Of a DNA stretch of 64,000 nt, positions 2,730 through 5,084 are shown piece after piece (the stretch's first letter is position 1; the number at the start of each line of letters is the position of its first letter). The position numbers and the translations under genes are program-made. Below the pieces are notes generated by a model, which saw nothing but the letters and a program-made list of their open reading frames with translations, searched no databases and had not been told where the DNA came from. Source of the stretch: Escherichia coli (GTDB taxonomy: Bacteria; Pseudomonadota; Gammaproteobacteria; Enterobacterales; Enterobacteriaceae); the NCBI RefSeq assembly GCF_003334765.1, contig NZ_QOWT01000010.1. One strand, written 5' to 3'.

Positions 2730-2928
2730 AATTATAATAAATATTATTGTTGAGTGTTATATTATTATTCCTGTGTGATACATTGAGCAAAGACGCGTTC
2801 ATCTTCGTCAAAGATATTATTAAATGCTGGTTTTGAAAAAAGTTCATCGGATAAGATATAGTCACGAAATAAGTATCTGCTAATATTTTATGATTTCTTT
2901 TTCAGAACGTCGAACGGGATTTTCTTAT

Positions 2929-3084
2929 TTAAGATATCAGAATCTTATGATTCGGGTAAAATTCTAAATAAATCAACATGTCATTAAAATCATCATAGCC
3001 ATTAGCTATTTCGGCTAAAATAGAGACTACATGTCTTCGGTCCATCTCACTTAAGGAGTGTAGTTCCGTTGTAAGTTTTTCCAT
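2929..3084 (-). CDS. Hypothetical small protein (51 aa), below the ORF-track length cut-off
   Basis: Hand translation of the minus strand gives MEKLTTELHSLSEMDRRHVVSILAEIANGYDDFNDMLIYLEFYPNHKILIS with a stop; it lies in the islet downstream of the candidate immunity gene. No strong Shine-Dalgarno sequence is seen. Confidence 0.3.
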   Translation of the reverse strand: MEKLTTELHSLSEMDRRHVVSILAEIANGYDDFNDMLIYLEFYPNHKILIS

Positions 3085-3178
3085 AGCTTGCACTGCTAAA
3101 TTTCGAACAAGGAATTTTCTGCTGGTAATCTCTAAAAAGATGGCATGGTTTACAATGATTTTTGTTTCCTTTTGATTA

Positions 3179-3673
3179 TTATGAACAACTGTCCATGATT
3201 TCGTTTAAGAATGAAGAGAAATCACTAAACGAACTGAATATATTTTCTGTGCCAATATTATCTCTAATTTCAAAAAAGTTACTTTTAATGTCATAAGTAA
3301 ATATTGAAATGCTATAATCCCCGATCACTAACCGTTCTTGTAGATCAGGGTTTATGAAATCATCATTATTTCTATAAAATTCATTTACGGCAAAAAGGTT
3401 TTTAACTGAAGGTTCTGGAATCGAGAGGCTAAATAATCGTAATCCATTAACTTCGAATCCATCCATTGCTCTTAAAAAAGTAAGATAATCAGGTTGATTC
3501 TTAAAAAGAATACTAACTTCATTACATAACTTCTCCAGGCAATTAGTTGAATTAGAATTAAATTCTATTTGGATTATACTTTCAATAAATGATTCCTTGA
3601 GCGGTGCTTCAAATGGATAGTCTAAATCATTCATCATTTTTATTAATTTATTTATTTGGGTTTTAGTCATCAT
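3179..3673 (-). CDS. Hypothetical protein, candidate immunity protein for the upstream Hcp-fused nuclease
   Basis: 164-aa acidic, AT-rich ORF directly downstream of yhhZ on the same strand; its start overlaps the yhhZ stop by 4 bp (3670-3673), the usual toxin-immunity coupling arrangement. Confidence 0.6.
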   Translation of the reverse strand: MMTKTQINKLIKMMNDLDYPFEAPLKESFIESIIQIEFNSNSTNCLEKLCNEVSILFKNQPDYLTFLRAMDGFEVNGLRLFSLSIPEPSVKNLFAVNEFYRNNDDFINPDLQERLVIGDYSISIFTYDIKSNFFEIRDNIGTENIFSSFSDFSSFLNEIMDSCS

Positions 3674-4848
3674 TTTGTGTGGTCCATAATATTTTTCATG
3701 GGAGGATAAATTGAGCCAGATGGAATGGCCCAGGGAGTGATTTTGCTTTCACCTACTAATATTCCCTTAGCTATTCGTGATTGCATGTTAGTAAAAACTT
3801 TATGATATGGTTCGTTTTCGATTAATACTAAATTTTCGAAATCATTAGTACCACCATCATCTAGAGATAGTTTATGGTGAACATTATAATTTAGAGGAAC
3901 ATTGCCCTTTCTCATTCTTAAAAGGTCTTCGGCGTTGAATCTTCCAGATGCTTCGGAGGTTTTTGCAAGTTTGATAAGAAAATTTTTTCTTACAGTTTTA
4001 TTAAACTCCTTTCGTAAGTTAGCTAAGTCTTTTGAAGGTCTCTTAATGTATATTATTTCTATTATGTCTATACCATCAAGAAGTTTTTGTTGACCTCTAA
4101 GTTTGCCTAAGTAACTATTTATTTCTGTATATGTATCAACATTAGAACGCTTTGTTAAAAGAATAGATGCTGTTGCTATCGCTATGCCCGCTGTTTTTTC
4201 ATTTAGTATTTGATCATAGCCTTTTATTGCATCTCCACCCAGTTTTTCCGCAGTATCTCTGAATCCTTCAATGTTCCCATTGTATACGCCACCAGCAGCA
4301 AGTAGCCTGCCAATAGCTTTGCTGTTTAACGTTTTGAAACGATTATTTGTTTGGTTTTTTGAATTTGGTAAAAACAAACGGTTATAATTTTCAGGGAGTG
4401 CCAAATAGCTGAACTCGGTATTTGCGATAAGATGTTGACAGAGGATAAATTCATAACTAATAGTTATTGTTTCTGTATCCAGTTGGTTTTCAATGATCTG
4501 GTGATGAATAGCCGATAAAAAAGCGCCTCTTAGTTGTATATAATAATACTTTTCCAATCTACCAAATCTATTTATTCGATAGAAGTCAAATCCCATAAAT
4601 AATTGTTCATTATTGTTAATGGAATTAATAAATAATGGAGTGCTTTTATCAATTAATTTACAAAATGTTATACCATGGAACTGTGAACCAAGCCCCGTAT
4701 TATTAATATTATTTAAGAGTGAGAATGTAAATATTTCATCCTCATGCCCGCTCTGCCAACGATTACCTGTAGACTCAGAAGTCCCACAACCTGCGGAGAT
4801 GCTTCCTTGTTGTTCTCCCGTTACTGTCAGGTAAACAATATTACTCAT
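3670..4848 (-). CDS. yhhZ: Hcp-family type VI secretion protein fused to a C-terminal HNH/His-Me-finger nuclease-like toxin domain (Hcp-ET type)
   Basis: 392-aa ORF. The N-terminus (MSNIVYLTVTGEQQGSISAG...ITFCKLIDKSTP...FYRINRFG...ISYEFI) has Hcp-like layout; the C-terminus contains HHKLSLDDGGTNDFENLVLIENEPYHKVF, an HNH-type motif. Confidence 0.8.
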   Translation of the reverse strand: MSNIVYLTVTGEQQGSISAGCGTSESTGNRWQSGHEDEIFTFSLLNNINNTGLGSQFHGITFCKLIDKSTPLFINSINNNEQLFMGFDFYRINRFGRLEKYYYIQLRGAFLSAIHHQIIENQLDTETITISYEFILCQHLIANTEFSYLALPENYNRLFLPNSKNQTNNRFKTLNSKAIGRLLAAGGVYNGNIEGFRDTAEKLGGDAIKGYDQILNEKTAGIAIATASILLTKRSNVDTYTEINSYLGKLRGQQKLLDGIDIIEIIYIKRPSKDLANLRKEFNKTVRKNFLIKLAKTSEASGRFNAEDLLRMRKGNVPLNYNVHHKLSLDDGGTNDFENLVLIENEPYHKVFTNMQSRIAKGILVGESKITPWAIPSGSIYPPMKNIMDHTK

Positions 4849-5084
4849 CCCTGAAAAGTCCTTTTATGGCATGCTATTTTATCAATGGCAATATTATGCT
4901 TGTTAATTGTTATTTATTTACTCCAGGAAATTGTAGGCGTATATATTAAAAAATAAAATATTACACTTTAGGAAGTAATTATGAGTTAAATCTCAATATA
5001 TGTATTGGGCAAATAAATACCTTAAAGGAAGGTATGTCGATTTTGAATGACACCCTTTTTCCATCTCAGAAAAAGGGCACTATC

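Follow-up and report, generated by a model that had tools for sequence, protein, structure and literature searches.

Orphan Hcp-fused toxins encoded with their own immunity proteins have been described in several strains of Escherichia coli. The Hcp-HNH orphan of E. coli 55989 was named Hcp-ET1, with ETI1 encoded downstream (bioRxiv 2024.03.05.583533), and the pair has been reported from E. coli STEC004, O104:H4 C227-11 and 55989 (Ma et al. 2017, Virulence 8:1189, via PMC6730261, PMC6099711 and bioRxiv 2024.03.05.583533). DNase activity and T6SS2-dependent delivery are attributed to Hcp-ET1 in secondary accounts of Ma et al. 2017 (PMC6730261, PMC6099711). YhhZ had earlier been viewed as an 'evolved Hcp' without a link to type VI secretion system (T6SS) function (PMC2907695), and was placed in a His-Me finger group (PMC5714182). 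A related arrangement is found among the LXG proteins, a polymorphic toxin class of type VII secretion (PMC8321402).

The locus described here lies at 2730-5084 of a 64,000-nucleotide stretch of E. coli DNA (the window), in the gap between ggt and yhhY. Its YhhZ and YrhA are identical at 391/392 and 162/164 residues to their counterparts at this locus in E. coli 55989, and the link to Hcp-ET1 was made through that locus together with the secondary papers. Judged from its sequence, the islet is very probably an 'orphan' effector-immunity cassette of type VI secretion, carried on the chromosome. The features of the locus are as follows.

2415-2438, + strand: ggt terminator hairpin (terminator-like stem-loop), the left conserved anchor of the variable segment
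2445-2729, - strand: yrhB, 94 aa, Imm35 immunity-family gene (Pfam Imm35; G+C 0.456, GC3 0.40)
2929-3084, - strand: yrhD, a small ORF of 51 aa (product named YrhD in RefSeq genomes)
3179-3673, - strand: yrhA, 164 aa, intact predicted SUKH-fold immunity gene, ETI1 in the literature (NCBIfam YrhA)
3284-3292, no strand assigned: TTTAATGTC, the empty target site of the K-12 IS1E, at yrhA codons ~128-130 (from the K-12 junctions)
3670-4848, - strand: yhhZ, 392 aa, predicted Hcp-fused HNH toxin, Hcp-ET1 (Pfam, TIGR03344, PDB)
4408-4848, - strand: Hcp/TssD tube-protein domain, YhhZ residues 1-147 (TIGR03344 and solved Hcp structures)
3703-4335, - strand: putative C-terminal toxin module, YhhZ residues 172-382 (homologues, PHROG)
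~3799-3882, - strand: HNH motif VHHKLSLDDGGTNDFENLVLIENEPYHK, YhhZ residues 323-350
4849-5084, - strand: yhhZ upstream region and presumed promoter region, at the right end of the islet (G+C 0.30)
5085-5573, - strand: yhhY N-acetyltransferase, the right conserved flank (NCBIfam PRK10140 equivalog, 373 bits)
5659-5788, + strand: ryhB, with its -35 hexamer from 5659, a Fur box at 5674-5692 and the RyhB sRNA

The preliminary description had presented this region as an islet that turns AT-rich abruptly at both edges and has a foreign-looking composition, and both points are borne out by computation. The islet (2355 bp; three genes, yhhZ, yrhA and yrhD) has a G+C content of 0.318 (31.8%), versus a mean of 0.527 (sd 0.017, minimum 0.479) when the 64-kb window is cut into non-overlapping pieces of equal length, which corresponds to z ~ -12. 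In sliding profiles, G+C falls from ~0.51 to 0.29 over 2400-2900 at the left edge and rises from 0.33 to 0.55 over 5000-5400 at the right, with the best change points (200-bp) at ~2706 and ~5193. GC3 is 0.26 in yhhZ, 0.24 in yrhA and 0.33 in yrhD, against 0.57-0.63 in the flanking ggt, yhhY, yhhX, yhhW and gntR, while the local codon-adaptation index is 0.46-0.50 for islet genes versus 0.60-0.76 for the same five flanking genes. The region is not uniform, and the islet stands out on both measures.

The N-terminal Hcp/TssD domain that defines Hcp-ET effectors was recovered in YhhZ by Pfam (T6SS_HCP, 2.5e-11), by NCBIfam (residues 1-147 align to TIGR03344 with 118 bits, cutoff 58.9) and by a PDB sequence search (Hcp3, 2.3e-11). 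Towards the C-terminus, PHROG families cover residues 169-382 (~1e-56) and Pfam HNH gives a weak match to YhhZ itself (E=0.013). YhhZ carries the motif HH...GG.N...NL......H, and H324, H325, N335, N339 and H349 are invariant across 21 homologues with identity down to 36%. At the level of sequence, the HNH / His-Me finger catalytic motif of Hcp-ET1 is intact in YhhZ. The same toxin module is carried on four different N-termini (Hcp, DUF8093, a third type and LXG), and in each of the 3/3 neighbourhoods read (Citrobacter, Leclercia and an SPbeta-like phage) it is followed directly by a YrhA homologue. The window, which maps to the core genes ggt...mrcA, contains no T6SS cluster. A role of yhhZ-yrhAB in methionine to cysteine conversion (PMC3309015) was rejected as a confusion of gene names with B. 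subtilis.

As in Hcp-ET1, a cognate immunity gene is expected immediately downstream, and yrhA lies directly 3' of yhhZ, its start overlapping the yhhZ stop by 4 nt (ATGA). YrhA matches the NCBIfam YrhA family (122 bits, cutoff 55) and has no Pfam match of its own, even at E<=10; among 36 aligned relatives, Pfam matches at E<=0.001 were to SMI1_KNR4 (7), SUKH_6 (5) and SUKH_5 (3). An AlphaFold model built from this 36-sequence alignment (pLDDT 88.5, pTM 0.85) returned SUKH proteins as its top Foldseek matches in the PDB: 2prv (YobK), 3d5p (SMI1/KNR4), 2icg, 2pag and 3ffv (Syd), with probabilities of 1.00-0.96 in these first five rows and TM-scores of 0.45-0.59. Taken together, the distant relatives and the predicted fold, at modest TM-scores (best 0.55-0.59), identify YrhA as a predicted SUKH-fold protein. 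The downstream protein of the SPbeta-like phage was considered as a YobK and rejected, since it had no PDB sequence match.

At the far end of the variable segment, YrhB matches Pfam Imm35 over 85/85 model positions (E=4.6e-23), and Imm35 is a polymorphic-toxin immunity family. The gene had been taken for a core gene flanking the islet. That assignment fails, as yrhB is present in 4069/5426 complete genomes (75%), is absent from the other 25% and sits inside the strain-variable segment; of the two proposed core flanks, yhhY stands, being found in every allele type, and yrhB is accessory. No toxin gene abuts yrhB. It occurs without the other islet genes in a yrhB-only allele (L004) and is not co-conserved with the YhhZ toxin module in Citrobacter or Leclercia; on these grounds it behaves like an orphan immunity gene. 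Between yrhB and yrhA, the small yrhD has no match in Pfam, NCBIfam, PHROG or PADLOC and has no conserved counterpart at the Citrobacter locus; the ORF list extends it further, to a GTG at 3093.

Upstream of yhhZ, directly past the yhhY stop, a weak hairpin is found (CCCTTTTTC-N7-GAAAAAGGG, read on the - strand). The region holds 15 promoter-like sites versus 13.0 ± 3.8 in shuffled controls, so no promoter is claimed here from the sequence; yhhZp5 and yhhZp7 are predicted promoters of yhhZ in the literature (PMC12428005). The H-NS silencing that had been suggested for the islet would agree with published K-12 occupancy at yhhZ and yrhA only: 'promoter islands' inside these two genes are H-NS-bound in K-12 ChIP-chip, with occupancy cited from Kahramanoglou and Oshima, and are also listed as horizontally acquired, by prediction (PMC3661553 Table 1). 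On the other side of yhhY, Rfam RyhB (RF00057) matches 5724-5788 on the + strand (83 bits), with a promoter-like site at 5659-5688, a terminator at 5763-5781 and a Fur consensus at 5674 matched at 16/19 positions. The islet is thus near ryhB, as had been noted; direct adjacency does not hold, as the whole of yhhY (5085-5573) lies between them. The toxin and ryhB promoters, placed within a few hundred bp of each other in the preliminary description, are ~0.8 kb apart when measured from the yhhZ ATG (4848) to the ryhB -35/Fur box (5659-5692).

The ggt terminator and the yhhY stop codon bound the variable segment, and four gap alleles were found in E. coli: the islet, yrhB only, a DUF4225 cargo (343 genomes) and an empty gap. 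The islet, yrhB-only and DUF4225 alleles share a common ggt hairpin and diverge just past it, in the empty allele the hairpin at the ggt end is a different one, and homology between alleles restarts exactly at the yhhY stop codon (5084/5085). The islet is present in 3829/5426 complete genomes (~71%), always on the chromosome at the same site and usually in single copy; its copies are 96-100% identical, and this identity tracks strain divergence. In Citrobacter youngae, a homologous pair of Hcp-toxin and YrhA genes occupies the same ggt-yhhY gap, and the small ORFs past the Citrobacter YrhA homologue show no relation to yrhB or yrhD. A Citrobacter gene of 294 aa beside yhhY was considered as a relative of the O157 DUF4225 protein and rejected, the proteins being unrelated.

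The word 'inserted' had implied a recent event, and the searches for mobility argue against this. The ORF list shows no transposase or integrase in the islet; no direct repeats bound it, and its inverted repeats amount to two 16-nt AT-rich chance matches; an Rfam scan of 1-9000 found ryhB and neither a tRNA gene nor any other family. Searches of plasmids and phages found no islet on a true plasmid and only distant LXG homology in phages; full-length matches labelled as plasmids were 4.8-4.9-Mb records, that is, mislabelled chromosomes. The islet accordingly does not qualify as a self-mobile island or an IS-borne insert: neither an integrase, a transposase nor repeats were found, nor a tRNA target or any copy on a mobile replicon. 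With no such signature and a Citrobacter pair at the same site, either the acquisition is old or the gap swaps its cargo by recombination in the flanks. Because the gap has neither mobility genes nor repeats and its cargo varies by lineage, we infer that cargo was most likely swapped or lost through homologous recombination in the conserved flanks.

In MG1655, an IS1A-family element (IS1E) lies inside yrhA, and the preliminary description of an IS1 copy and a disrupted small gene in K-12 is confirmed by the junctions and by the published designation of the locus, yrhA::IS1E (PMC12428005). The K-12 IS1 is 768 bp long and is flanked on both sides by the 9-bp duplication TTTAATGTC, which is single-copy in the window (3284-3292). 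MG1655 and window positions 2300-5800 are identical except for IS1 and its target duplication; the lone BLAST mismatch to K-12, at 3283, is an artefact of aligning across the IS1 junction. The window does lack a transposase ORF and terminal repeats at this locus, as had been observed, and the alignment places IS1 in MG1655 and not here, so no IS was missed. Since the 9-bp target is present only once, the window represents the pre-insertion state. Of the two possibilities raised earlier, an uninterrupted (ancestral) form is supported by the single target and by its being the majority state across lineages 96-100% identical, with the K-12 IS1 junction in at most 431 of 5426 complete genomes. A different strain lineage is supported as well: the window is non-K-12 but K-12-like, and its pieces are singly 100% identical to wild isolates such as ML35. 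It is K-12 that carries a derived, atypical, IS-disrupted allele, the uninterrupted form being the norm.

The IS1E insertion leaves K-12 YrhA with residues 1-130 and 8 IS-encoded residues, the last 34 residues being lost. An intact yhhZ beside this truncated yrhA is tolerated, and from the viability of K-12 it follows that the toxin is either silent or, at native levels, without harm in the cytoplasm, unless the truncated protein still neutralises it. This viability may depend on H-NS and supercoiling-dependent silencing of the intact yhhZ. MG1655 topA mutants spontaneously gained a yhhZ-yrhA deletion (bioRxiv 2024.10.07.617030), which would be accounted for if K-12 does hold a toxin without its antidote.

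Under the effector-immunity reading, the yhhZ product would be an Hcp tube subunit with a C-terminal HNH (His-Me finger) nuclease toxin of ~210 residues, and yrhA, translationally coupled through ATGA, would supply the cognate SUKH immunity protein that binds and neutralises the toxin in producing cells and their kin; yrhB would be a separate orphan Imm35 immunity gene at the far end. In strains with a compatible T6SS, following the literature, the Hcp-toxin fusion would join the Hcp tube and be fired into neighbours, where the toxin would degrade DNA unless YrhA is made. In strains without a T6SS, H-NS probably keeps the cassette mostly silent, in line with what is published for K-12, and its immunity genes could still guard against attack by relatives.

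It is possible, although we hold it with less conviction, that the islet is a silenced relic whose toxin is never deployed in this lineage, for lack of a compatible T6SS and under H-NS repression. It would then persist through yrhA and yrhB as orphan immunity against T6SS-armed relatives, or by neutral inheritance, to which we give the same tentative weight. This account draws support from K-12, which keeps the islet and is not known to have a T6SS, as well as from carriage in ~71% of genomes and from the yrhB-only allele, where yrhB stands alone as an orphan immunity gene. The published K-12 H-NS occupancy and the former view of YhhZ as an 'evolved Hcp' unlinked to T6SS function (PMC2907695) point the same way. 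However, an intact toxin ORF whose catalytic residues do not vary between genera is an argument that toxin activity is under selection somewhere, and T6SS2-dependent killing has been reported for a near-identical protein (PMC6099711/PMC6730261, bioRxiv 2024.03.05.583533). Moreover, the account overlaps with the orphan cassette and does not exclude it.

Two further explanations fare much worse. The pair might act inside the cell as a toxin-antitoxin, addiction or abortive-infection module, the HNH nuclease being held by YrhA and freed on phage attack or loss of the locus, with Hcp idle. A tightly coupled nuclease and inhibitor gene pair would suit such a module, and both proteins match PHROG families owing to their homologues in SPbeta-like prophages; but the phage homologue is an LXG toxin, a secreted competition weapon and not an abortive-infection system (PMC8321402), and the N-termini found on the toxin module include the known delivery domains Hcp and LXG, besides DUF8093 and a third type. 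In addition, PADLOC defence models gave no match to the four proteins and K-12 survives with a truncated yrhA, so that we consider this module very unlikely. Less credible still is a recent mobile-element insertion (an IS composite, an integrative island or a prophage remnant) whose mobility genes were missed. The abrupt composition edges and very low GC3 are what it would predict, but transposase and integrase ORFs, flanking repeats, a tRNA gene in 1-9000 and true plasmid or phage copies are all lacking, the islet always occupies one chromosomal site with 96-100% identity that tracks strain divergence, and a homologous pair sits at the syntenic Citrobacter site. The orphan effector-immunity cassette is the reading that we retain.

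The locus, its foreign composition, H-NS occupancy, the K-12 IS1E and the function of Hcp-ET1/ETI1 are already in the literature. The value added is in annotation: yhhZ is better named an Hcp-HNH effector than a plain 'TssD tube protein', yrhA the predicted SUKH immunity gene of yhhZ, and yrhB an orphan Imm35 gene that is not core. The combination of intact toxin and broken immunity in K-12 could matter for T6SS competition experiments with K-12 as the prey or chassis, and wherever H-NS or supercoiling is perturbed. The known cargoes of the gap are Hcp-HNH/SUKH, DUF4225/membrane ORF, orphan Imm35 alone or nothing. A joint reading, in which the gap is a dedicated swap site for interbacterial-weapon cassettes in E. 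coli and relatives and K-12 a natural 'toxin without antidote' strain, is speculative, and we think it improbable as a whole.

Compared with known systems, the O157:H7-type DUF4225 effector cassette shares the ggt-yhhY gap, AT-richness and an interbacterial toxin domain (PMC9765294), but its cargo is unrelated to the islet, without Hcp, HNH, yrhA or yrhB. The LXG toxins of SPbeta-like Bacillus phages carry an HNH module 44% identical over 147 residues, and YhhZ residues 172-243 are not common to them; the SUKH immunity protein downstream is 27% identical to YrhA. They have LXG in place of Hcp as delivery domain, and their host is Gram-positive. Closer are the DUF8093-HNH proteins of Enterobacter, Leclercia, Pantoea, Serratia and Erwinia, with a module 50-70% identical over ~212 residues. 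In the Leclercia protein, from the single neighbourhood read in this group, the C-terminal half is 69% identical to the YhhZ toxin module, and a YrhA homologue comes after it, as with yhhZ. Their N-terminal half, DUF8093 (PF26362), is unrelated in sequence to the Hcp of YhhZ, and they occupy other genomic sites, the Leclercia copy adjoining a CdiA-type toxin locus. With Hcp-ET1/ETI1 there is no structural difference: the islet shares with it the locus, the gene order, the Hcp and HNH architecture and an immunity gene directly 3'.

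Open reading frames (ORFs) and database matches place the start of the window in the ggt-gntR region of E. coli, and its first 25 kb and last 25 kb each align in single pieces at 100% identity to wild isolates such as ML35. The genes of interest, located with the ORF list and database matches (an Rfam match for ryhB), are:

638/665-2407, + strand, ggt
2445-2729, - strand, yrhB
2929-3084, - strand, yrhD
3179-3673, - strand, yrhA
3670-4848, - strand, yhhZ
5085-5573, - strand, yhhY
5724-5788, + strand, ryhB
5906-6943, + strand, yhhX, then yhhW and gntR

The islet carrying yrhD, yrhA and yhhZ (2730-5084) has a G+C content of 0.318 versus 0.527 ± 0.017 in equal-sized pieces elsewhere in the window (z ~ -12; lowest such piece, 0.479), and sliding G+C changes abruptly at both edges. 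GC3 was 0.24-0.33 in the three islet genes compared with 0.57-0.63 in flanking genes, and the local codon-adaptation index fell from 0.60-0.76 in the flanks to 0.46-0.50. The islet's ORF list contained no transposase, and a repeat search found no repeats bounding it. These data support the preliminary description of a sharp-edged, AT-rich islet lacking an insertion sequence. The only other 500-bp stretches in the window with G+C <= 0.40 (~33601-34100 and ~53801-54300) correspond, from the gene order of a near-identical genome, to the malT-malP and yhgE-pckA intergenic regions, which are ordinary regulatory DNA.

K-12 had also been described as carrying an IS1 copy and a disrupted small gene here, with the suggestion that the window holds the uninterrupted, ancestral form; alignment to MG1655 agreed on both counts. 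An IS1A-family element, reported as IS1E (PMC12428005), sits within MG1655 yrhA, flanked by a 9-bp target duplication (TTTAATGTC); the window has a single copy of this 9-mer, at 3284-3292, and thus represents the K-12 locus as it was before the insertion. The two sequences are otherwise identical over 2300-5800. Of 5426 complete E. coli genomes, at most 431 cover a 60-nt probe spanning the yrhA/IS1 junction, and these are predominantly laboratory derivatives of K-12.

Within the same genome set, the yhhZ-yrhA-yrhD segment was present in 3829 genomes, always on the chromosome (median copy number, one) and with 96-100% identity, and yrhB in 4069. A further 343 genomes, mostly O157:H7, carry unrelated AT-rich cargo that replaces both the islet and yrhB in the ggt-yhhY gap: a DUF4225 protein and a convergent membrane-like ORF, of 303 and 138 aa in strain F1 E4 (locus L005, 1650-3440). 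In Vibrio, DUF4225 has been validated as an antibacterial T6SS toxin domain (PMC9765294). Other E. coli alleles have yrhB alone or an empty gap. When four allele types were aligned, homology ended directly past the ggt terminator hairpin (which differs in the empty allele) and restarted precisely with the stop codon of yhhY. This places the variable segment at ~2440-5084, not 2730-5084, and makes yrhB, previously taken for a core gene, accessory. In Citrobacter youngae (locus L006, 7137-11070), the same gap holds an Hcp-toxin/YrhA pair whose Hcp-toxin is 70% identical to YhhZ, together with a 294-aa protein without assigned function and two small ORFs, neither of them related to yrhD or yrhB. 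The ggt-yhhY gap may be a swap site for weapon cassettes.

The N-terminus of YhhZ is an Hcp/TssD domain (Pfam, 2.5e-11; TIGR03344, 118 bits against a cutoff of 58.9; PDB Hcp3, 2.3e-11), and its C-terminal extension contains the motif VHHKLSLDDGGTNDFENLVLIENEPYHK. Pfam HNH matched YhhZ itself weakly (E=0.013); residues H324, H325, N335, N339 and H349 were invariant in an alignment of 21 homologues with identities down to 36%, and YhhZ has been assigned its own His-Me finger group (PMC5714182). YrhA had no direct Pfam family match. Among 36 aligned relatives collected from a 1.84-billion-protein search, seven matched SMI1_KNR4, five SUKH_6 and three SUKH_5, and the best PDB matches of an AlphaFold model built from this alignment (pLDDT 88.5) were all SUKH proteins (YobK 2prv, 3d5p, 2icg, 2pag and Syd). 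YrhB is a clear Imm35 member (4.6e-23); family and profile searches gave no matches for YrhD. In MG1655, YrhA (locus L001, 3235-3651) retains residues 1-130 followed by 8 foreign residues, a truncation predicted from the model to remove two beta-strands and the last helix, while yhhZ remains intact.

The yhhZ and yrhA genes are joined by an ATGA overlap in E. coli. When the YhhZ toxin module alone served as the query, the N-terminus preceding it was Hcp in E. coli and Citrobacter, DUF8093 in Enterobacter, Leclercia, Klebsiella, Pantoea, Serratia, Erwinia and others, and a third type in Pantoea. In the Leclercia protein, the N-terminal half is DUF8093, not Hcp, the C-terminal half shares 69% identity with the C-terminal 212 residues of YhhZ, and a YrhA homologue (59% identity) follows directly. 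SPbeta-like Bacillus phages encode an LXG-domain protein whose C-terminal module is 44% identical to YhhZ residues 244-385, followed by a gene product 27% identical to YrhA; here the delivery domain is LXG, of the type VII secretion toxin class, whereas in YhhZ it is Hcp. A single toxin-immunity unit combined with interchangeable N-termini, at least two of which are known delivery domains, is the hallmark of polymorphic toxin systems, and the yhhZ C-terminal region and yrhA very probably form a cassette of this kind.

Across Enterobacterales (toxin-module homologues P0186-P0285), fusions to DUF8093 (PF26362) were commoner than fusions to Hcp; this domain, which has no sequence relation to Hcp, could be a delivery or adaptor domain not described before. 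The Leclercia pair (locus L008, 8845-10501) adjoins a CdiA-type toxin gene accompanied by Imm63 and Imm70 genes, and phage SPbetaL2 (locus L013, 1923-4280) shows ~75% nucleotide similarity to yhhZ in a 91-nt stretch at the HNH motif.

Published K-12 data were consistent with the earlier suggestion of H-NS silencing: 'promoter islands' within yhhZ and yrhA are H-NS-bound in the Kahramanoglou and Oshima datasets, and both are marked as predicted foreign genes (PMC3661553). H-NS occupancy of the locus is therefore already published for K-12. The promoter of ryhB (-35 from 5659; Fur box at 5674-5692, 16/19 positions matching) forms a divergent pair with yhhY and not with the islet. The distance is ~575 bp to the islet edge and ~810-850 bp to the yhhZ start codon, further than the few hundred bp first proposed between the two promoters, and nothing in the sequence points to cross-talk with the islet.

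In E. coli 55989, where these genes occupy the same site in the same order, 391/392 YhhZ and 162/164 YrhA residues are identical to those of the window. The orphan Hcp-HNH protein of 55989 and O104:H4 has been named Hcp-ET1, with its immunity protein ETI1 encoded downstream (bioRxiv 2024.03.05.583533), and two reviews attribute DNase-type toxicity and T6SS2-dependent delivery to Hcp-ET1, citing Ma et al. 2017 (PMC6730261, PMC6099711). The sequence analysis itself establishes the domain architecture, the conservation of the catalytic motif, the coupled and shared inheritance of the toxin module with its immunity gene, and the near-identity to Hcp-ET1/ETI1. On the secondary sources, the T6SS would deliver the Hcp-toxin fusion, which would break down target DNA and be counteracted by ETI1. 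Where a strain lacks a T6SS, the toxin would stay silent and the immunity genes may nevertheless give protection. That the islet is purely defensive or a relic, which a strain's T6SS status would separate from toxin delivery, is a real possibility, if the less probable one. PMC3309015 annotates the O104:H4 yhhZ-yrhAB island as methionine-to-cysteine conversion, apparently through confusion with the B. subtilis genes yrhA/yrhB, which are unrelated.

An intracellular toxin-antitoxin or anti-phage module is very unlikely: PADLOC gave no match, the toxin module lies behind the known delivery domains Hcp and LXG (and two uncharacterised N-termini), and K-12 is viable with a truncated yrhA. Recent insertion by a mobile element is more improbable still, as every test run speaks against it. 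The gap's cargo most likely turns over by recombination in the flanks, in line with the islet's lack of mobility genes and repeats, the absence of islet copies from the plasmid and phage collections searched, and the related pair in the same gap of C. youngae. Three PLSDB records of 4.8-4.9 Mb that contain the islet (NZ_OL790696.1, NZ_CP141089.1 and NZ_CP134663.1) are evidently chromosomes filed as plasmids.

Two side points are more tentative: the possible exchange of weapon cassettes at the gap, and the combination in K-12 of an intact toxin gene with a disrupted immunity gene, which may be linked to the yhhZ-yrhA deletion reported as acquired by MG1655 topA mutants (bioRxiv 2024.10.07.617030). 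The islet itself is real and was rightly spotted; it is already-described biology in the commonest allelic form.
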